DNA from: Candidatus Bathyarchaeota archaeon
GTDB lineage: Archaea; Thermoproteota; Bathyarchaeia; Bathyarchaeales; Bathycorpusculaceae
Length of the DNA: 64,000 nucleotides
Direction: 5' to 3'
Assembly: GCA_963832745.1 (NCBI GenBank)
Contig: CAWHVC010000003.1
Span: forward strand, 448,001-512,000
In this document: positions 3,997 through 39,858 of the stretch, in pieces
Numbering within the stretch: position 1 is the stretch's first letter
How the letters are laid out: every line of letters begins with the position of its first letter
Notes under the pieces: model-generated
The model's database searches: none
What the model saw: the letters and a program-made list of their open reading frames with translations, nothing else
Told to the model about the DNA's origin: nothing
Translations under genes and position numbers: made by a program

Positions 3997-4746
3997 CTAG
4001 GAACGTTTGGGCATAGCAGCTTTAAAAGTGTAAGTTAAGTAGCTTTTAATTTCTGTTAACGTAAGCTTGGATTTGCCGCGTTTACGGTTGACAAACAAAA
4101 TTGGGGTCTCCTTGACCATAAAATCCTTTGAAACTGCCTGCCGGATGGTTTCTATTTGGATTTCATATGTTTGACTGTGCAGGTTGCTTATGGCTTCTTT
4201 AAGAAACGCGGTAGAATAACATCGGAAACCACTTGTGCAATCATGCAAGTTAAGCCCAAGCGAGTTTTGAGCAATAAAATTGGCAACGCGACTAACTATT
4301 TTTCGTGTAAAAGGCCACCCCGCGGTTTTTCCGCCCTTACAGTAACGGCTGCCAATTACCACGCCACAATTGTTTTCCATGCTTGAAAGAAGCTGCGGTA
4401 TAGCTTTTGGGTCATGCGAATAATCTGCATCCATTGTCACGACGTATTTAGGCAAGATTGGCATGGAAAGAAAAATTTTGAATCCATCTGTGATTGCAGT
4501 ACCTAACCCTGTTTTTTTGGGTCTGACGCACAACATTATGTTACTATATTTCTGCTGCATTTGCCTGACAATTTCTGCAGTATGATCGGGGCTTAAATCG
4601 TCGATTACCAAGATTGAAACGTTAAGATTTAGAGCTTCGATGTCTTTTATGAGGTTTGCAATATTTTCTGCTTCACCGTATGTGGGCAAAATCACGCCAA
4701 TCTTTGAAGAAACCTGCATGTTCCCTGACAACTCATAAGTCATCAA
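3997..4746 (-). CDS. GT2 polyprenol-phosphate mannosyltransferase (DPM1-like)
   Basis: ILPTYGEAENI, IDDLSPDHT, MDADYSHDP, GSRY and DCTSGFR motifs. Confidence 0.9.
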   Translation of the reverse strand: MMTYELSGNMQVSSKIGVILPTYGEAENIANLIKDIEALNLNVSILVIDDLSPDHTAEIVRQMQQKYSNIMLCVRPKKTGLGTAITDGFKIFLSMPILPKYVVTMDADYSHDPKAIPQLLSSMENNCGVVIGSRYCKGGKTAGWPFTRKIVSRVANFIAQNSLGLNLHDCTSGFRCYSTAFLKEAISNLHSQTYEIQIETIRQAVSKDFMVKETPILFVNRKRGKSKLTLTEIKSYLTYTFKAAMPKRS

Positions 4747-31763: not shown

Positions 31764-32606
31764 GTGAAGTTGACACCTTCCGTATTAGACACGAATTTCT
31801 CCGAAGTAGAAACAAGAATCAGTCGCTTCATCAAAGAATATGTTTCTAACAGTCAAGCAAAAGGCGTCGTGCTTGGGCTTTCAGGCGGAATCGACAGCGC
31901 AACCATCGCCGGCTTATGCAGTAAAGCCTTGGGAAGCGAAAACGTCTTAGCATTATTATTGCCTGAAGAGGAAACAAGAAACCAAAAAGACATTAACGAC
32001 GCAAAAGCCATTGCAGAACAATTTAACATTGAAACCCAAATGGTTGATATGACACTCATCGTCGACAACTTTTACAAGGCAATACCAGTCTTTGACCAAA
32101 GCGACAGGGTTTGTAAAGGAAACATCAAAGCACGAACTCGAATGATTATTCTTTACTATTACGCAAACAAACTTAACAAAATCGTTTGCGGAAGCTCAGA
32201 CAAGTCAGAAACCCTAATGGGATACTTTACCAAGTGGGGAGACGGCGCAGCAGACATGGCGCCCATAATGGACCTCTACAAAACCCAAGTCCGAAAACTC
32301 GCAATCCACCTTGGAATACCCGAACCAATTGCCTTGAAGCCTTCAACACCTGCGCTTTGGCCTAACCAGTCCGCTGAGGGTGAACTGGGAATAAAATATG
32401 ACACCTTAGACCTTATCCTGTATGGTCTTGAAAGATTTATGCCAACAGAAGAAATCGCTAGCCAAGTGGGAATTGAACAAGAGATTGTTGAAAAGGTTAA
32501 AAGTCGTTGGCTGGATAACGAGCATAAACGGCGAATGCCAATAGCGCCCAAACTTGGCTTTAGAACAGTGGGAAGCGATTTTAGGCTTCCAAGACAAGAT
32601 TATTAA
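31764..32606 (+). CDS. nadE: NAD+ synthetase (synthetase domain only)
   Basis: GLSGGIDS, GNIKAR.RM, GYFTKWGDG and EHKR. Confidence 0.95.
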   Translation: MKLTPSVLDTNFSEVETRISRFIKEYVSNSQAKGVVLGLSGGIDSATIAGLCSKALGSENVLALLLPEEETRNQKDINDAKAIAEQFNIETQMVDMTLIVDNFYKAIPVFDQSDRVCKGNIKARTRMIILYYYANKLNKIVCGSSDKSETLMGYFTKWGDGAADMAPIMDLYKTQVRKLAIHLGIPEPIALKPSTPALWPNQSAEGELGIKYDTLDLILYGLERFMPTEEIASQVGIEQEIVEKVKSRWLDNEHKRRMPIAPKLGFRTVGSDFRLPRQDY

Positions 32607-32621
32607 AAAGGCGAAAACCGG

Positions 32622-33455
32622 ATGAAAGATAACATCAAGCTGGCTCTTGCCCAAATCAGCAGTAAACGAGAAGATAAACAGGCAAACCTACGGCAATACG
32701 AGGAGTTAACACTCAAAGCAAAGAAGCAAAATGCAGATTTGGTTATCTTTCCTGAAATGTCCTTAACAGGCTACGTGGTCAAAGACCAAGTCTACGAGTT
32801 AGCCGAAAACATACCGGGACCTTCAGTGGAAAAGGTTGAGGCGTTGGCTAAAAAGACGGGTATGCACATTATTTTTGGGATGCCGGAAGTAAGCGAAAAA
32901 ACTAAAGCCACCCTTTACAACAGTTCGGTTCTTGTTGGTCCCGGTGGTTACATTGGTAAATACCATAAAATGTACTTGCCTACGCACAGTGTTTTTGAAG
33001 AGAAACGTTATTTTCGTCCTGGATATCAGCCTGCAGTGTTTGATACGGCGATTGGAAAAATTGGGTTAACCATTTGCTATGATATATTCTTTCCAGAAGT
33101 GTTTAGGCTTGCCCGTTTAGGTGGCGCTCAACTAATTGTATGCATTTCAGCTTCTCCAGCAGTGCGTAGGAGCTATTTTGAAGTTTTAACTGCTGCAAGG
33201 GCAATAGAAAACACGTCTTATCTTGCTTATGTGAATCTTTCAGGCGTAGAAGAGGGATTGCAGTTTTGGGGTGGAAGTTGCCTTGTTAGCCCAACAGGGG
33301 ACATTTTAGCTAAGGCAAAGTATGATGAACCAGATTTTGTTTGCTGTGAAGCGGATTTCCATGACCTACGGACAGCAGAAGCCTTCATTCCAACGCTTAG
33401 AGACTTAAGACCTGAACTGTTTGATAAACTAAAGAGTCAATCAGAAAATCTCTAA
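32622..33455 (+). CDS. Carbon-nitrogen hydrolase (nitrilase family), probable glutaminase partner of NadE
   Basis: FPEM, YHKMYLP and ICYD (E-K-C triad); 15 bp downstream of nadE. Confidence 0.85.
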   Translation: MKDNIKLALAQISSKREDKQANLRQYEELTLKAKKQNADLVIFPEMSLTGYVVKDQVYELAENIPGPSVEKVEALAKKTGMHIIFGMPEVSEKTKATLYNSSVLVGPGGYIGKYHKMYLPTHSVFEEKRYFRPGYQPAVFDTAIGKIGLTICYDIFFPEVFRLARLGGAQLIVCISASPAVRRSYFEVLTAARAIENTSYLAYVNLSGVEEGLQFWGGSCLVSPTGDILAKAKYDEPDFVCCEADFHDLRTAEAFIPTLRDLRPELFDKLKSQSENL

Positions 33456-33487
33456 TCAGAATAAACCAGTTTTTAGGGCTGTAACTG

Positions 33488-33625
33488 GTGATTATCACAA
33501 ATCACAGTAAGTCACAGTTGCGTCACAACCCCATCACAAGCCTGTGATATCATGCTTTTTTATGGAAAAATCACGTGATTTCAGCGTGATTTGTGTGTGA
33601 TTAGCCGTGATTAGGTGACATCACG
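33488..33625. repeat. Array A: about 14 copies of RTCAC/GTGAY, partly at 10-11 bp spacing
   Basis: RTCACA at 33494, 33501, 33511, 33522, 33533; GTGAY at 33575, 33586, 33597, 33607, 33615; palindrome AAATCACGTGATTT. Confidence 0.85.
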
Positions 33626-34018
33626 ATGTCAATTTATCATTATTCACAAGCAGAATAGTAGGGAAAAGATGTAACGATAATGAGAAAGAAAGTATGTTTT
33701 GTTCTTGAAATATAAGCGCCAAAAGAGCAAAGTTACGGTTCAAGGTTAACGGATATTTAGCATGAAGGTTTAAAAAAAGGCAAAACACCACTATAGTAAC
33801 AAAAACCAATAAGCTCAAATTAAACCTCAAAAACAAATATGGCCCAAATTTGAAGCTAAAATTTGGTAATAATCATTTAAATACCATAATAATCACTAAT
33901 AGGCTAAAATTATGCCGTTTTAGTGCTCAATTTTTAGTCTTTTTAGGGGTAACAAGCTATAAAAGCCCTGATAGTATACAAAGTTGTATCCATTAAGCAT
34001 AACGAGGAGAACATAGTT

Positions 34019-34498
34019 TTGAAGTTAAAAGACGGCGTAACCGCATGGTTAAATGGGGCATTAAATGACCCCATTGTAAAAATACTATCCAAAAACAGCC
34101 AATTAACCAAAACACAGCTTGAAACACTGCTTATTGACATTTTAGCCGAGAATATAGCAGGCAAACAGCTAAAGTACGATGAAAAAGCCAAATTACGCTT
34201 AACCAAGTCCAAAATAAGCCGCGGTTCGTTTAACAGGACTTTAGCACAGTCTAAAGAAAACGTTATAAAATCCATTTACACGGTACTACTTTTAGGTTAT
34301 TTGGGTGTTTTTGAGAGCTCAACTCTTGACCCATACCTCGAAATAGCAAACAAACTGAGAGATTATGTAGAGGCCCACCAGGACATACCTGGCAAGCAGG
34401 AAGAGCTAGAGGACCATGTAAAGTTGATAGAAATCATCAGAGAGGAGCTAGAAACGAGCCTAAAACGGCTTTCTAGTCCATCAGGAGAGCCCTTGTGA
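34019..34498 (+). CDS. Uncharacterised helical protein with putative HTH
   Basis: GAGGAG RBS; LT.TQLE...KA.LR....ISRGSFNRTL.Q resembles an HTH with recognition helix. Confidence 0.7.
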   Translation: MKLKDGVTAWLNGALNDPIVKILSKNSQLTKTQLETLLIDILAENIAGKQLKYDEKAKLRLTKSKISRGSFNRTLAQSKENVIKSIYTVLLLGYLGVFESSTLDPYLEIANKLRDYVEAHQDIPGKQEELEDHVKLIEIIREELETSLKRLSSPSGEPL

Positions 34499-34787
34499 CG
34501 TCACAAATCACATAAAATAAGGATGTTTTGGGCTTCTTTTTTGAAGGCCCGCAGCATCATTTTTTATTCTCTAAATTATAGATTATTTAGGAAATAGGGC
34601 ATAATTTAGGGTTGTTTTAGAGAGGTTTGAAGCATGATAGTGTGACTTGTGATCGTGTGATTTTGTGATGTGTGATGTCATGCGGTTGGTTCCCATAGAA
34701 GTTACCGTAAGGCTTAAAAGGAATATGGGAAACTGTGATGTGTGATGCAACACATTAAATCACGGGTCAAATCACGCCTATATCACA
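34493..34787. repeat. Array B: about 13 copies of TGTGAY/RTCACR around the promoter of the downstream gene
   Basis: Palindrome TTGTGACGTCACAA at 34493; TGTGAY at 34641, 34648, 34656, 34664, 34671, 34734, 34741; ATCACR at 34507, 34759, 34771, 34782. Confidence 0.85.
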
Positions 34788-34800
34788 TTGAGGTGGAAAC

Positions 34801-35628
34801 TTGAGTGAAATCATAGTGCCAGCATTGATAGGTGCCTTGTTAGTAGCTACAGTTGTTGCATCTACAGGTTATTATAGACGGATACGCCAAGCTCAAAAAG
34901 AATATGAGAAAGCCAGAGATGCTGTTGAGGATATTGTACTAAGTTTTAACCGTGAACTTAAGCGTGAATCTGAAAGGCTTGAGCAGATAGCGTTTAAAGT
35001 TGAGGGAAGTCTAGCAAAATCTGATACTGGACTAAGAAGAATAGACAATATTGAGAAAAGAATTTCCCCTGTTGAGAGTCAACTTAGCAATCTTGAAGAT
35101 CAAAGAAGAAACTTTGAGAATCAACGTAGCACTATTGAAAACCAGAAAAATATCATTGAGACACAAATTAATCAACTTAGTAGTTTAACGCAAAACAACA
35201 GTAACCTGTCTTCTTCATTAGCATGTTTAGATGTAAAAATAAAAGACATTGAAGCATCTCAGGAATCTTTGAAGAACAAAATCAGCGAGTTTGAGGAGCA
35301 AATTCAAAAAATCGCACTGTTACCTCCTGAAAGCAAAATTGAGCAGGCAATACCTGTTGTGCCCATTAAGCGTGATAAAGCCCTAGCCGCATTAACCAAC
35401 ACAGAAGTTGCAGTGTTGGAAATGTTATCTTCAGAAGGGTCAAAAACAGCTCCCGAAATCAAAGAGAGAGTAGGCCTTAGTCGAGAGCATACAGCTCGGT
35501 TAATGAAAAAACTCTATGAGGAAGGTTACCTTGAACGGGAAATGGGTAAAATTCCATTCAGATATAGTGTTAAGAAGGAAATGGAAAAATTCCTAAAGAA
35601 GGAAGACCCAAGCACACCCCAAACATAA
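34801..35628 (+). CDS. Membrane-anchored coiled-coil protein with C-terminal winged HTH
   Basis: GAGGTG RBS; N-terminal TM (IIVPALIGALLVATVVA) followed by RR; long heptad region; C-terminal LTNTE..VL..L...G.KTAPEI...VGLSREHTARLMKKLYEEGYLER. Confidence 0.8.
   Translation: MSEIIVPALIGALLVATVVASTGYYRRIRQAQKEYEKARDAVEDIVLSFNRELKRESERLEQIAFKVEGSLAKSDTGLRRIDNIEKRISPVESQLSNLEDQRRNFENQRSTIENQKNIIETQINQLSSLTQNNSNLSSSLACLDVKIKDIEASQESLKNKISEFEEQIQKIALLPPESKIEQAIPVVPIKRDKALAALTNTEVAVLEMLSSEGSKTAPEIKERVGLSREHTARLMKKLYEEGYLEREMGKIPFRYSVKKEMEKFLKKEDPSTPQT
35050..35175 (+). repeat. Six degenerate 21-bp (7-aa) in-frame tandem repeats
   Basis: IEKRISP/VESQLSN/LEDQRRN/FENQRST/IENQKNI/IETQINQ; each DNA unit starts NTTGAR. 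Confidence 0.7.
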
Positions 35629-35644
35629 TCGTATCACAAAAACA

Positions 35645-35710
35645 TTACAGGGACTTCACAAACTGTAAAATTGTGAACTAAAAAGTGTTAACAGTTCACA
35701 ACCTGTGAAG
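35645..35710. repeat. Array C: TTCACA/TGTGAA copies between convergent genes
   Basis: TTCACA at 35655 and 35695; TGTGAA at 35672 and 35704; TTCACA-N3-TGTGAA palindrome. Confidence 0.7.
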
Positions 35711-35716
35711 GAAAGT

Positions 35717-36157
35717 TTAGTAGTTGTTTTTAATTTGTTGCTTGATTGTTGCCTGTGGCAGATTTGGTGCAGCTTTGTACTTAAGGTTGTTTCCTGAACC
35801 TGTCCTTAAAAGTAGTCCTTTGCTTGCCATTCTTGATAGATATGTTGAGACAGTACTCAAACTGACTGGTTCCTTAAGCTCCTGCTCATAAACAGACTGT
35901 ATATCTTTTGATGCAAACCAGATTAACGGAAAACTTTTCTGGATAACCATTTGAACTTTTTCAAAACGTGTAGTCGCATTTGGAAGAGCTTGAGTTGAGC
36001 CGCCGGTTGATGGACCTTCATTTGGCATGCCACCTAGCAATTCGACAAGATCCAAGAGGCGTAGAGCTTTGTCGCGGGTTATTTGACCCTCGAACGCGAC
36101 GGTATATCGGTTTCCGTCGTTATCGAATAGCTCCACACGCATTTTACGTGCTGGCAT
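35717..36157 (-). CDS. Uncharacterised protein: small N-terminal beta-beta-alpha domain, linker, C-terminal winged HTH
   Basis: MRVELFDNDGNRYTVAFEGQITRDKALRLLDL; low-complexity linker; F.SKDIQ..YE......SLSTVSTYLSRM..KGLL.R.G wHTH. Confidence 0.75.
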   Translation of the reverse strand: MPARKMRVELFDNDGNRYTVAFEGQITRDKALRLLDLVELLGGMPNEGPSTGGSTQALPNATTRFEKVQMVIQKSFPLIWFASKDIQSVYEQELKEPVSLSTVSTYLSRMASKGLLLRTGSGNNLKYKAAPNLPQATIKQQIKNNY

Positions 36158-36178
36158 TCTTGCTTACCTAGGTGTCTG

Positions 36179-36480
36179 TTCACAACTTTACGACTTCACA
36201 GCTTATAGCTGTTATGGTGAACAACAGCAATGTGAAAAGCCGTAAACAAGATTTAAATTGATTTTTAGCCATGAATTTCATCGTTTTAAGAATTACAAGC
36301 TTCACATGAAAACGGAATGTGAAAAAAAAATCATTCCTTACCCTGTTTGCATTCTCCAGTAGAAGCGTAGGGGTGTGTCATTCACATCGAATAAGCATAA
36401 TTACAGATAGAAACAACCAAAATAACCCGGAAATGAAGACTTCACAATGCAACTTCACATACAGTTCACAGTTTTGTGAA
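36179..36480. repeat. Array D: about 10 exact TTCACA/TGTGAA copies running into the origin
   Basis: TTCACA at 36179, 36195, 36301, 36381, 36441, 36454, 36465; TGTGAA at 36231, 36318, 36475. Confidence 0.8.
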
Positions 36481-36940
36481 GTTTGAAATAGGTAAATTTC
36501 ATGCTTAAAAAACAGTTTATGGATAGCAAGGTGCATTGGAAAAACAAATTTGATGTTTATGGGAAATAGATAGAGTTTTTTATGGACTTTTTGAAATTTT
36601 AATCTGTTTATAGGCACACCCCTTGGTTTCCGCTCGAGAGTTTGCTGACAGAACTTGATATCAGGAGATCAAAAATTTTGCTGAAAAATCATCTAAATTC
36701 TTGGATAATAATTGTTAATATACTTAAAACTAACTTAACTCCCAGAGTATATTATATAATTAATATATAATAGTAATTTTATTAATTTTTAAAGTTCTTG
36801 TCCAGTGGAAATTTTGGGGTGTGTCTCCTTAACCGTTTACTTGATTGGTACCTAATCTACTCATTGATTTGTAGGATTATTGTGTTCTAAAACCAGTTTT
36901 TTGTACTGTATGCTTTATCTGTTCCAATAGAAATAACGGT
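36354..36940. other. Replication origin oriC (ORB elements plus AT-rich DUE)
   Basis: ORB-like TCCAGTAGAAGCGTAGGGGT (36355, +), TCGAGCGGAAACCAAGGGGT (about 36613-36638, -) and TCCAGTGGAAATTTTGGGGT (36801, +); very AT-rich 36700-36795; mini-ORB GTTCCAATAGAAAT at 36921; directly upstream of cdc6. Confidence 0.88.
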
Positions 36941-36970
36941 GTTACCTCTGAAACATTGAGGGGATGGCAA

Positions 36971-38215
36971 ATGGGAAATCCAAGCGTATTAGATGATGTA
37001 TTTGATAGTTTCGTAAACAGAGTAAACCTGTTTAAGGACAGAGAAGTGCTTAGACACGACTATATACCAGACAAGTTACCTCACAGAGAAGATCAAATTC
37101 GTCTTTTAGGCGAAAGAGTCGCTCCAGTCCTTAAAGACGCTAGATGTTCAAACATTTTCATATACGGAAAAACTGGCACTGGCAAAACAGCAGTAACAAA
37201 ATATGTCCTTAGCCATCTCGAAGCAAAAGCAAAACAGTATGGTGCGCAAGTAAAATTTTGCTACATAAACTGCCGCATGACAGGCTCGGAATACCGCGTT
37301 TTTGCCAGTTTAAGTCAAAGTGTCGGAATGTCCATACCCTTTACCGGTCTGTCAGTAGGCGAAGTTTTTGACCGATTCCGCGCTGGCCTTGACACTTCAA
37401 GAATACTTTTCATAATAGTACTTGACGAGGTTGATGCCCTGATTAAAGAACAAGGAGACGCCTTCATGTACGAATTAACCAGAATCAACGAAACCCTCAG
37501 CAAAAGCAAAGTCTCCATCATCGGCATCTCCAACGACTTGCGCCTTAAAGAGTTTCTTGACCCAAGAGTCTTCAGTTCACTTAGTGAGGAAGAATTAGTC
37601 TTCCGTCCCTATGATGCTGGAGAATTAAGAAACATTCTTCTTGAACGCTCAAAGCTTTCTTTCCAAGAAGGCGTCCTAACAGACTCCGCTTTAAGTATCT
37701 GCTCAGCCCTTGCGGCAGCAGAACATGGAGACGCTCGCCGAGCGTTAGACCTATTGCGTGTCGCAGGAGAAGTGGCTGAACGTCAAGGAGCAAAAACTAT
37801 AATGGAAGAGCATGTGCGTCAAGCTGAAAAACATATTGAACACAACCGTGTTGTTGAAGCCCTTAAAAACTTGACCCTACATTCAAAACTGGTATTGCTA
37901 AGTGTTTATCATCTTAACAAATCTAATGCAACAACAGGTGAAATCTATGATGTTTACAACGAGCTTTGCGGTGAATTCGGAGCTGGTCTTCTAACACAGC
38001 GGCGTTTAGGTAGTTTGGTTAATGAGTTAGATTCAATGGGTCTTGTTAACGCCAAAGTTGTAAGCATGGGACGATATGGGCGAACAAAAAAGATTCGCCT
38101 TGAAATTTCCCGCAGTTTAATCCGGGACGTTTTCGGCACCGATGCACGCTTTGGACGAATAATAGAATATACACCGCATGCTTCTCAAAAAAACACTCTT
38201 GACAACAACAGCTAA
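36971..38215 (+). CDS. cdc6: Orc1/Cdc6 replication initiator
   Basis: YIPDKLPHRE, GKTGTGKT, VLDEVD, HGDARRALDLLR and C-terminal wHTH (GRYGRTK). Confidence 0.97.
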   Translation: MGNPSVLDDVFDSFVNRVNLFKDREVLRHDYIPDKLPHREDQIRLLGERVAPVLKDARCSNIFIYGKTGTGKTAVTKYVLSHLEAKAKQYGAQVKFCYINCRMTGSEYRVFASLSQSVGMSIPFTGLSVGEVFDRFRAGLDTSRILFIIVLDEVDALIKEQGDAFMYELTRINETLSKSKVSIIGISNDLRLKEFLDPRVFSSLSEEELVFRPYDAGELRNILLERSKLSFQEGVLTDSALSICSALAAAEHGDARRALDLLRVAGEVAERQGAKTIMEEHVRQAEKHIEHNRVVEALKNLTLHSKLVLLSVYHLNKSNATTGEIYDVYNELCGEFGAGLLTQRRLGSLVNELDSMGLVNAKVVSMGRYGRTKKIRLEISRSLIRDVFGTDARFGRIIEYTPHASQKNTLDNNS

Positions 38216-39858
38216 CACTCAGCTTTGAAGTCTAAGACTGTTGTTTCAAGGGTCATCAAGTTAATTACTGGTACCTTCCCAGGGGTTGGAACAAGACCAA
38301 GTTTTTCCATGTAATCTGTTTGTTCTTGCCAACCTCCAGAATTAACCACTAAGACGCCTCTATAATTGCAATAACCTAAAACATGCACATGCCCAGCATG
38401 TAAGATGTCTGGAACCTTATCAATTACTAAGTAATCACGATTTTCTGGAGAAAGCATGGTTTTTCCACCGTAAACCGGGGCTAAATGTCGACCTTGTAGA
38501 AGTAGTCTCATGGATTTTTCTGGGTGGTCATGACTCATTTCTGGAATAACTGAAATGATGTCGTCTAAGCTTCTGCCGTGATCCATAAGTACGTCGACGC
38601 CATGAATGCTTACCAGACATGGACTTCCAACAGAGTGAATATTGGGTTTGCCCTCAATTGCGGTTAGGTAGTCTGGTGGGATTGCGGGCTGTGGCAACGC
38701 TTTTCTTGAGGCATCATGGTTTCCTGGAGCCAAAACAATTTCAATATATTTGGGAATTTTTTCCAAGTATTTGATGGCAAAATTGTATTGCTTGTGCACG
38801 TCACGTATGGTTAGTTCATATTGTTGACCGGGGTAAACTCCAACGCCATCAACAATGTCTCCTGCTACAAGCAGGTATTTTACGCGGCCAGCAATTTCTT
38901 TCATTTCTGGGGTGCCATATTTGCCTTTAAGCCAAAGGATGAATTTTTTGAAGGCTTCCCGGTTAAATTTTGTGCTACCCACATGAATGTCTGAGGTAAG
39001 AACGGCGTAAACTGGTTCTTGCGCTCGCTGTGGGGCTTTGCGGCCCACGTCAGGAAAGATTATATCTTCAGCCAAAAACAAGTTTGTTCTAGTTTTGATA
39101 ACCGCTAGACAGATTACTTGGTCAGGTAGAATTTGTAGTGCTTTCTTTTTAACTTCATCTGGAGCCTTGTTTGGAACTAGCACGGTTGCGCTGCTGTCAA
39201 GGTCTTCTACAGAAAGTATTGTTTGCTGTTTGGCATCTCTTCTTTCGGTTAGCATGCAAATGATTTTCAGTTTGGTTTTAGGTTGTGATTTTAGGGCTTC
39301 GCGGATTGGTGTCGCTGCTCTAACGTCGATTCTTTGCCGCAGAATTTTTTCTAAACGCTTGTACCTATCCTGAAAAAGGGCTGTGTATTCTTGGAGGGTT
39401 CCATTTGAAGTTAGTTTGCCTGTTGCATCCTCTAAAATCTTTAGTTCTGAAGGGATGTATTTGGCATAGGGGTAAAAAGTTCCCTCATCAACTATTACTG
39501 GAAGTCTAGACGGTTGTGGCTGCTGCATCTTAACTTCCGAAACATTTGACTTTTCATCTTTAATCTCTAAAACTTGCGTTGTTGCTTGGACGGAAACTTG
39601 GACTTTACCGCTTTTAACTGCTTGAGCTGCTTGCCTTGTCTGGGTTAACTGAGTAACCATGTTTTCCAAAAAAATTTTTTCTATAAAAAACGGTTTATCT
39701 TTTAAGTTCTTCATTTCATGCAATACCATGTTCATTATCGCTAGCGGGTCAGTTCCTTCGCAGTTGTGGCATAAATAGTGAAAAGCATCAGTGCTAAGTT
39801 GGTAGCCTGCAATGATTGTTGCCTCGATGGCTTTTTGTAGTCTTTCATTTCCGCTCAT
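38212..39858 (-). CDS. polB: DNA polymerase D small subunit DP1
   Basis: OB fold and phosphoesterase motifs SDIHVGS, GDIVDG, PGNHD, HGRS, GHVH. Confidence 0.95.
   Translation of the reverse strand: MSGNERLQKAIEATIIAGYQLSTDAFHYLCHNCEGTDPLAIMNMVLHEMKNLKDKPFFIEKIFLENMVTQLTQTRQAAQAVKSGKVQVSVQATTQVLEIKDEKSNVSEVKMQQPQPSRLPVIVDEGTFYPYAKYIPSELKILEDATGKLTSNGTLQEYTALFQDRYKRLEKILRQRIDVRAATPIREALKSQPKTKLKIICMLTERRDAKQQTILSVEDLDSSATVLVPNKAPDEVKKKALQILPDQVICLAVIKTRTNLFLAEDIIFPDVGRKAPQRAQEPVYAVLTSDIHVGSTKFNREAFKKFILWLKGKYGTPEMKEIAGRVKYLLVAGDIVDGVGVYPGQQYELTIRDVHKQYNFAIKYLEKIPKYIEIVLAPGNHDASRKALPQPAIPPDYLTAIEGKPNIHSVGSPCLVSIHGVDVLMDHGRSLDDIISVIPEMSHDHPEKSMRLLLQGRHLAPVYGGKTMLSPENRDYLVIDKVPDILHAGHVHVLGYCNYRGVLVVNSGGWQEQTDYMEKLGLVPTPGKVPVINLMTLETTVLDFKAEC

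Follow-up and report, generated by a model that had tools for sequence, protein, structure and literature searches.

Two short-box families that differ by one base, and a trio of DNA-binding genes, at a probable orc1-adjacent replication origin of Bathyarchaeia

Results

Gene content and origin anatomy of the locus

We analyzed a 64,000-nucleotide stretch of a Candidatus Bathyarchaeota archaeon chromosome (GenBank assembly GCA_963832745.1, contig CAWHVC010000003.1, positions 448,001 to 512,000; hereafter the window, numbered from its first nucleotide), in which two families of short DNA boxes, (A/G)TCAC(A/G) (RTCACR, or RTCAC without the final base) and TTCACA, form dense arrays next to the orc1/cdc6 gene. 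We read the part from 33.4 to 37.0 kb as the orc1-adjacent replication origin of this chromosome, accompanied by three DNA-binding genes that are conserved as a group. After a carbon-nitrogen hydrolase gene (32622-33455, Pfam match) come a gene for a predicted all-helical helix-turn-helix protein of 159 amino acids (159 aa; 34019-34498, plus strand), one for a 275-aa coiled-coil winged-helix protein with a predicted membrane anchor (34801-35628, plus strand), and one for a 146-aa protein with a C-terminal winged helix (35717-36157, minus strand). A spacer of 800 bp separates the 146-aa gene from the orc1/cdc6 initiator gene (36956-38215, plus strand), whose product matches Pfam Cdc6_C with 88.6 bits (cut-off 25.1) and Cdc6_lid with 87.3 bits. 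The gene for the small subunit of DNA polymerase D (PolD) comes next in a conserved gene order (38212-39858, minus strand; DNA_pol_E_B, 53.8 bits).

Three boxes resembling origin recognition boxes (ORBs) were found in the spacer: box 1, TTCTCCAGTAGAAGCGTAGGGGTGTGTC (36352-36379, plus strand), which is directly followed by a TTCACA at 36381-36386; box 2, inverted (36613-36639, minus strand); and box 3, TTGTCCAGTGGAAATTTTGGGGTGTGTC (36798-36825, plus strand). Boxes 2 and 3 enclose a stretch of 78.5% A+T (36640-36797, compared to 58.2% in the window) that is a candidate unwinding element. For these calls we used what we take to be the ORB consensus, a TCCAGTGGAAA dyad with a GGGGT run. The three boxes and the AT-rich stretch were all kept in an alignment of 22 loci from the same genus. 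Because orc1/cdc6 and the PolD gene occur here with conserved ORB-like boxes around an AT-rich stretch, we identify the locus as an orc1-adjacent archaeal origin. A distant second Orc1/Cdc6 paralogue (29% identity) is encoded on another contig (C2:279675-280787), on which a genome-wide scan for box clusters found neither TTCACA nor RTCACR clusters. The window also holds a strongly conserved block directly 5′ of orc1 (36835-36955), with TTCCAATAGAAAT, which resembles a further ORB-type dyad, and a TTTATC box; this block is probably the orc1 promoter with an Orc1 site.

Two box families on separate sides of the locus

Across the whole window neither box was in excess: TTCACA occurred 50 times on both strands (51.19 ± 7.08 expected from shuffles) and RTCACR 94 times (91.67 expected). 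Both were strongly concentrated near the origin, with 25 RTCACR in 33494-34787 (1,294 bp; 1.85 expected, Poisson probability 5e-20), plus two copies outside this main stretch at 35371 and 35633, and 14 TTCACA in 35655-36480 (826 bp; 0.66 expected, 1.9e-14), none of them inside the 146-aa gene. A first-pass annotation of this DNA had described (A/G)TCAC(A/G) arrays around the 159-aa gene, 14 exact TTCACA copies around the 146-aa gene, and a sharp switch between the two, and the counts bear all of this out. The final ATCACA, at 35633, and the initial TTCACA, at 35655, lie within 22 bp, and a single stray TTCACA (33643-33648, plus strand) occurs on the RTCAC side. When clusters were defined as at least four sites with gaps of at most 40 bp, all three RTCACR clusters of the 3.0-Mb genome and two of its three TTCACA clusters fell at this locus (the third is on contig C5 at 621849), as did every convergent TTCACA pair with a 3-, 4- or 11-bp spacer, four in all.

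The RTCAC boxes start with array A (33488-33626), whose 14 (A/G)TCAC boxes comprise 12 exact RTCACR, an ATCACC at 33488 and a GTCACC at 33615, laid out as about five forward and one reverse, a 27-bp gap, and one forward and five reverse; in the alignment they form conserved islands. Array B1 (34494-34512) consists of three RTCACA boxes overlapping the stop codon of the 159-aa gene. Array B2 consists of five RTCACA boxes 7 to 8 bp apart (34641-34676, minus strand), which lie 5′ of the presumed TATA-like box of the 275-aa gene, CTTAAAAGG (34713-34721, plus strand), and array B3 of five ATCAC(A/G) boxes (34734-34787) between this element and the start codon at 34801. The last ATCACA (35633-35638, plus strand) is situated 5 bp past the 275-aa gene stop and is kept in the nearest relatives only. 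On the TTCACA side, array C, which varies within the genus, has four boxes in two convergent pairs with spacers of 11 and 3 bp (35655-35709) between the convergent 275-aa and 146-aa genes. Array D1 (36179-36236), with TTCACA at 36179 and 36195, a reverse TTCACC at 36216 and a reverse TTCACA at 36231, encloses the TATA-like TTATAG (36203-36208) of the 146-aa gene. Beyond D1 the TTCACA boxes interleave with ORB-like box 1; they include the convergent pair D2 (36301-36323, 11-bp spacer) and array D4 (36441-36480), in which three forward boxes 11 to 13 bp apart are joined by one reverse box. Across the genus loci, which are related and non-independent, neighboring RTCAC boxes were most often 6-7 or 10-11 bp apart, and the distances between TTCAC boxes peaked at 10, 15-16 and 21 bp.

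We also noted a 300-bp AT-rich, gene-free and poorly conserved stretch (33650-33950) between array A and the 159-aa gene promoter, without an Rfam match. An Rfam scan of 32000-38000 at E values up to 1 gave as its sole match a chance microRNA (20.6 bits, cut-off 100), which rules out the arrays as a known RNA. A mobile-element or plasmid-iteron source was rejected, as the gene order is conserved chromosome-wide across classes. Among the sequencing runs listed for the sequence, two were DNA runs, which held a small fraction of its words (shares 0.08 and 0.05), and none was RNA.

The partition of the two boxes was then compared across the order. The 146-aa protein was matched in 36 of 41 related genomes, from which 35 loci were fetched, so that the order set, with the window, comprised 36 loci; their gene order is kept from the 159-aa gene through PolD. 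The spacer 5′ of the 275-aa gene had at least five A/G-TCAC and at most two TTCAC in 30 of 33 loci, and the spacer from the 146-aa gene to orc1 had the reverse, at least five TTCAC and at most two A/G-TCAC, also in 30 of 33; in the 700 bp 5′ of the 159-aa gene, A/G-TCAC was dominant in 28 of 33. Pooled over loci, the base before TCAC was A 277, G 101, T 22 and C 21 times 5′ of the 275-aa gene, and T 271, A 26, G 10 and C 15 times beside orc1, against a genome background of 41% T. In position weight counts the RTCAC side read A-N-(A/G)-TCAC-(A/G) and the orc1 side TTCACA, alike in the genus and in other families, with a shared core of TCAC(A), and in the 22 aligned genus loci the boxes stood out as conserved islands amid diverged spacer. 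Random mixing of the variants at orthologous loci, which the first-pass annotation had named as an outcome that would speak against two specificities, was thus not seen, and the box split is preserved across whole archaeal classes. The array downstream of the 146-aa gene reached at least three copies in only 7 of the 22 genus loci with a short spacer. Because array C is so rarely kept, flanking on both sides, which had been proposed for TTCACA and the 146-aa gene, is not the conserved feature.

TTCACA boxes and the 146-aa protein

The predicted structure of the 146-aa protein has an N-terminal domain of a beta-hairpin and a helix, a linker, and a C-terminal winged helix with the recognition helix LSTVSTYLSRM. 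In Foldseek searches the winged helix gave generic matches to RosR, MecI/BlaI, ArsR, Fur and AspA, a resemblance at the level of the fold only. The Pfam model of BlaI/MecI repressors (Penicillinase_R) reached 23.4 bits (cut-off 22.6) over profile positions 21-70 of 115 only. We rejected this assignment as a generic fold match: the winged helix is C-terminal, the N-terminal domain is a beta-hairpin and helix, and the C-terminal dimerization helices of the family fall outside the match. A profile search of structures gave no solved relative among the 14 sequences listed, and each of the 120 homologues listed was either unnamed or entered as a "hypothetical protein". At E values of 0.001 or better the family counts 502 representatives. 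It matches 199 of 301 sampled Thermoproteota genomes (40 distant loci were fetched), and members from records titled Odinarchaeia, Halobacteriota and Culexarchaeum share its build and have almost the same recognition helix. Prediction of a two-copy complex scored 0.02 against a mark of 0.42, which is not evidence either way.

The 146-aa gene lies at least 19 kb from orc1 in four genomes of three families. Among five genomes tested with the gene away from orc1, four keep 5 to 8 TTCACA within 1.5 kb 5′ of orc1, around ORB-like cores, and in these four the TTCAC 5′ of the distant 146-aa gene number 0, 1, 2 and 5. By this comparison, the TTCACA boxes belong to the orc1-side flank of the origin. 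In the relatives labeled f19, all 11 loci carry 7 to 12 TTAACA in the 274 to 583 bp between the 146-aa gene and orc1, replacing TTCACA, and the recognition helix of the f19 protein reads LS(V/I)ISTYL instead of LSTVSTYL; its wing differs too.

Seven of ten genomes without a match to the 146-aa family were uninformative and were dropped from the presence/absence argument, G033 and G035 because a contig end cuts the orc1 match or lies within about 250 bp of it, and G034, G036, G021, G269 and G328 because orc1 was not found at an E value of 1e-60 or better. The three genomes of family f13 are 97 to 100% complete, show no match to the family profile, and have 0, 0 and 1 TTCACA in 1.5 kb; orc1 (51 to 55% identical), the ORB-like boxes and the AT-rich gap are kept. 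In four families without the 146-aa protein, TTCACA 5′ of orc1 numbered 1, 0, 0 and 1. Across these genomes, then, the common denominator of the TTCACA boxes is a close 146-aa family member in the genome, not gene adjacency and not orc1 alone, and the 146-aa winged-helix protein is probably their reader.

Two further observations concern this gene and its boxes. The f13 loci L211 and L213 have a different open reading frame (ORF) of 124 aa with a helix-turn-helix-like stretch, between the ORB pair and orc1 and on the orc1 strand, which may be a functional replacement for the 146-aa gene. The only two divergent TGTGAA-N3-TTCACA palindromes of the window's genome are 6 kb apart at C5:621849-621898 and C5:627754. 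The former is inside the four-box TTCACA cluster on contig C5, just 5′ of a minus-strand gene whose N-terminus, read by eye from the DNA, resembles a NifH/ParA-type P-loop protein; this site may be a second target of the TTCACA reader.

(A/G)TCAC(A/G) arrays and the 275-aa protein

The 275-aa protein carries a hydrophobic anchor near its N-terminus (residues 4-24, then RRIR). A long coiled coil follows, and the C-terminal part is a winged helix of the MarR/TrmB type whose recognition helix is SREHTARLMKKL. Residues 198-257 match Pfam MarR with 31.1 bits (cut-off 24.6) and TrmB with 27.8 bits (cut-off 25.6), and the anchor and coiled coil fall outside these families. Among aligned family members the anchor is kept in 26 of 30, and the coiled coil is also kept. 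Nothing in NCBIfam exceeded the cut-off for the 159-aa, 275-aa or 146-aa protein. In the ESM Atlas, all clusters obtained were "hypothetical protein" ones from Bathyarchaeota and Nitrososphaerota. None of the three proteins fits a curated family.

The f19 group consists of ammonia-oxidizing relatives, and archaeal AmoA was present in all three f19 genomes tested. It retains the order 275-aa-like gene, 146-aa gene, orc1 and PolD, and the recognition helix REHT(A/S)RLMKKL is kept from Bathyarchaeia to f19. All 11 f19 loci have 5 to 15 ATCAC boxes at the start of the 275-aa-like gene, with A before TCAC in 84% of 126 sites (10 of the 11 loci), and a relative of the 159-aa gene was detected in only one of the 11, as a weak match. 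The three f13 loci retain a 275-aa-like gene with 6 to 10 ATCAC in 1.5 kb, and no 159-aa gene relative was seen within the 1.5 kb read. In f14 and f17, the 159-aa gene adjoins the 146-aa gene, there is no winged-helix match to the 275-aa family, and the 10-kb loci have at most two RTCAC per 200 bp. Because the RTCAC arrays are kept in f19 and f13 and missing in f14 and f17, it is the 275-aa gene that they follow, not the 159-aa gene. In four loci whose recognition helix is AREHVARTLKKL, the boxes read (A/C/G)TCAC(A/T), and T precedes TCAC in 6% of 50 sites; overall, R-class arrays avoid T at this position (6 to 9%). This distribution favors the membrane-anchored 275-aa winged-helix protein as the reader of the RTCAC arrays. 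In the ammonia-oxidizer loci L179-L185 and L192-L195, we also observed a second conserved cluster of four to six A/G-TCAC boxes within the 275-aa-like coding region (about 4360-4600, oriented), in the part that encodes the winged helix.

The 159-aa protein and its promoter palindrome

The 159-aa gene has a presumed promoter with the TATA-like box CTATAAAAG (33957-33965, plus strand), followed by the palindrome GTATACAAAGTTGTATCC (33974-33991). The palindrome has the form GTATACAA-N2-TTGTATCC, lies between the TATA-like box and the start codon, and is likely the private operator of the 159-aa protein. ATACAA occurs within 110 bp 5′ of the gene in 32 of 33 order loci, and palindromes of the ATACAA-N4-TTGTAT type are found in other orders too. 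In loci L173, L174 and L196, the helix-turn-helix reads SRGTYAKIL instead of SRGAFNRTL, and the palindrome differs as well.

The predicted 159-aa structure is all-helical (predicted local distance difference test score [pLDDT], 85.6). Residues 17-99 weakly resemble the helix-turn-helix of LuxR and sigma region 4, and residues 100-158 form a helical hairpin. Superposition on the EsrB DNA-binding domain gave Z 7.3 and a root-mean-square deviation of 2.6 over 63 residues (model 26-99), and sigma region 4 chains gave Z 6.7, both middling values for a helical model. No specific relative of the model was found by Foldseek (E 1.9 or worse) or VIA, and the protein belongs to no Pfam or NCBIfam family. 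The likelier case, in our view, is that the palindrome in its own promoter is all that the 159-aa protein reads and that the RTCAC arrays do not require this protein.

Discussion

Taken together, the sequence comparisons suggest that most likely each box family belongs to its own uncharacterized DNA-binding protein, one of them membrane-anchored. The arrays are conserved and occur together with the genes across genomes; from this we infer a scheme of three proteins with three private elements, two of which are box arrays split by one base, with the TTCACA set built into the oriC flank; we assign it a probability of about 0.5. The 146-aa protein would read TTCACA and repress itself through the four boxes around its own TATA-like box. 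The remaining TTCACA boxes interleave with ORB-like box 1 on the origin's left flank, where the protein would act as an accessory origin-binding factor alongside Orc1. The 275-aa protein would read (A/G)TCAC(A/G) and repress itself through the five boxes between its TATA-like box and start codon; about 20 further RTCAC boxes in dense arrays would load many copies of it and hold origin-proximal DNA at the membrane. The 159-aa protein would read its promoter palindrome alone. The base before TCAC would separate the two array systems, T for the 146-aa protein and anything but T for the 275-aa protein. Each pairing is somewhat likelier than not; the origin-accessory and membrane-tether roles are tentative and less likely than not.

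The first-pass annotation had read the arrays as two related but distinct specificities, each bracketing its own helix-turn-helix gene. That there are two motif classes with separate histories holds. Their relatedness lies in the DNA motifs: by hhalign (probability, 37%), the winged-helix domain of the 146-aa protein is not a close paralogue of that of the 275-aa protein. The bracketing finds no support here: the 159-aa gene has its own palindrome, the RTCAC arrays follow the 275-aa gene, and TTCACA stays at orc1. A change of recognition helix goes with a change of motif in both array systems, LS(V/I)ISTYL with TTAACA in f19 and AREHVARTLKKL with (A/C/G)TCAC(A/T). The 159-aa loci with SRGTYAKIL do carry a changed element as well, and that element is the promoter palindrome.

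The main alternative keeps the same pairings and makes the control purely local, with three proteins that repress only their own promoter or operon and have no replication or membrane role. It is a serious contender, though we hold it to be well short of an even chance. It would account for the boxes that enclose the TATA-like boxes of the 146-aa and 275-aa genes, for the 146-aa gene heading a HerA-like ATPase operon in relatives, and for f24, in which boxes occur only at the 146-aa gene's own promoter (5 to 6 TTCAC within 450 bp 5′ of the gene in all four loci). However, TTCACA boxes remain at the orc1 origin in the four genomes with a distant 146-aa gene, and the linkage to orc1 holds across classes. 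Local repression would also leave 14 + 25 boxes, many distant from promoters (array A is about 330 bp 5′ of the nearest TATA-like box), and a conserved membrane anchor and coiled coil to be explained.

Several findings weigh against the scheme of three private elements with an origin role. All pairings are co-distribution among related, non-independent genomes; the change from TTCACA to TTAACA happened only once in evolution, and the f13 genomes represent one lineage. The f24 genome G047, the one tested from that group, has the 146-aa gene and only one TTCACA at orc1, and f37, f44, f23, f29 and f38, with one genome each and weaker 146-aa matches, have 2, 1, 1, 3 and 0 TTCACA in the 1 kb 5′ of orc1. 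Genome G072 has a short 275-aa-like gene without arrays, the helix of which also differs. The cumulative GC skew of contig C3 shows a broad plateau from 420 to 520 kb around the locus at 484 kb, which is weak support for an origin, and the 146-aa model is of middling confidence (pLDDT 68). In other families the 146-aa gene is the first of an operon that also holds a HerA-like ATPase gene, and the TTCACA boxes may therefore be ordinary operon control that shares the origin spacer. In one such locus, from another family of the same order (L036:5001-8039), the 146-aa gene precedes, on the same strand, a 333-aa ORF with no Pfam match and a 519-aa HerA-like ATPase (DUF87, 32.3 bits); in the window only 88 bp lie between the 146-aa and 275-aa genes, and these two extra genes are not there.

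Three other alternatives, compared across the same genomes, fit the distribution data poorly. Binding of the flanking RTCAC arrays by the 159-aa protein would agree with the presence of arrays A and B on both sides of its gene in 28 to 30 of 33 order loci, and with the three RTCACA boxes over its stop codon. We find it improbable, as the gene has its own conserved promoter palindrome, and as the arrays persist almost without it in the 11 ammonia-oxidizer loci and in f13 but are missing in f14 and f17, where it adjoins the 146-aa gene. It is more doubtful still that TTCACA is a lineage-specific mini-ORB bound by Orc1/Cdc6 itself. In solved Orc1-ORB complexes, one winged helix reads the ORB dyad, and the hexamer is unlike the ORB dyad of the same spacer. 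TTCACA boxes do interleave with ORB-like boxes, one of them abutting box 1, and follow orc1 in the four genomes with a distant 146-aa gene, but f13 retains orc1 and ORB-like boxes without them, and in G047 they are at the 146-aa gene and not at orc1. Least probable of all is a single protein that reads both classes with affinity tuned by the one-base difference, for which the shared TCAC(A) core would speak, but TTCACA became TTAACA in f19 with ATCACA unchanged, the classes were lost separately (only the T class in f13, only the R class in f14 and f17), and T is avoided before TCAC in the R-class arrays.

A bolder version of the favored scheme would make the 146-aa family an ancient and widespread second layer of archaeal origin recognition, with TTCACA-type boxes marking the oriC flank beside the ORBs, and the 275-aa protein a centromere-like binder, anchored in the membrane, that uses the RTCAC arrays to fasten newly replicated origin DNA to the cell envelope. 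We offer it as speculation that is more likely wrong than right. Such a system for anchoring the chromosomal origin, if true, would be the first to be proposed for Bathyarchaeia and ammonia-oxidizing archaea. Archaeal accessory origin-binding proteins are only just being described, and this locus offers two testable protein-and-box pairs at the single canonical origin of soil, sediment and ocean lineages. Because one pair has homologues in ammonia-oxidizing relatives, a group with cultured species, the idea could be tested in culture. T versus not-T before TCAC is also a clean natural case of what would be two winged-helix specificities separated within 22 bp. Archaeal chromosome segregation and the form of the centromere were an open question in the available part of a 2016 review (PMC5120986).

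Comparison with known systems

A literature search that did not take in the work of Pelve et al. 2013 on the origin of Nitrosopumilus turned up no account of these boxes or of the proteins. The locus resembles a canonical oriC, as set out in the available text of PMC4010727, in its orc1/cdc6 gene, inverted ORB-like boxes around an AT-rich stretch, and adjoining PolD. It differs in its second and third short box families tied to neighboring DNA-binding genes, which are not part of the anatomy in that text. The oapABC three-gene cluster associated with haloarchaeal origins is comparable in layout alone, going by its description in the part of PMC7002104 at hand.

Dense arrays of short boxes also occur with centromere-binding proteins of the winged-helix or ribbon type. 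ParR/parC of plasmid R1 has box arrays around its own promoter that serve self-control and complex assembly. The same holds for AspA of pNOB8 and SegB sites as the available part of PMC5120986 presents them, with self-control and a large nucleoprotein complex. The AspA chains 5k5q and 4rs8 were among the weak Foldseek matches of the 146-aa model (E about 0.011), a match to the generic winged-helix fold. No ParA-type motor was seen in the ORF list of 31-40 kb, to which the search was confined, and none of the six of these ORFs scanned against Pfam was a ParA-type ATPase.

The role proposed for the 275-aa protein has bacterial counterparts. RacA of Bacillus subtilis has a DNA-binding domain and a membrane element, has sites near the origin, and holds origins at the cell periphery. 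RicO of Staphylococcus aureus, in the accessible part of its report, also holds origins at the periphery, with an N-terminal DNA-binding domain and a C-terminal amphipathic helix (10.64898/2026.03.06.710092). The likeness, a sequence-specific DNA-binding domain with a membrane-binding element near an origin, is one of role only. Both counterparts are bacterial, and in the 275-aa protein the anchor is hydrophobic and N-terminal, followed by a coiled coil and, at the C-terminus, the winged helix of MarR type.

The nearest archaeal parallel to the 146-aa protein is UBP, the ucm-binding protein at Sulfolobus origins, described in the available sections of Dhanaraju et al. 2025 (PMC12141716) as a beta-rich saddle protein of 111 aa, a monomer of which binds one 11-bp ucm; it also binds hundreds of other sites. 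No chain named UBP appeared in the structure profile search (14 sequences listed) or among the Foldseek rows listed for the 146-aa model, although an absent match does not exclude a family. The 146-aa candidate differs from UBP as described there, being a winged helix with 14 hexamer boxes, which cluster at only one other place in the genome. As in the account of UBP and ucm, the proposed role of the 146-aa protein is that of a small non-initiator protein on a specific motif between or beside ORBs, additional to Orc1 (PMC12141716). We suggest that UBP is at most a functional analogue of the 146-aa protein, not a relative.

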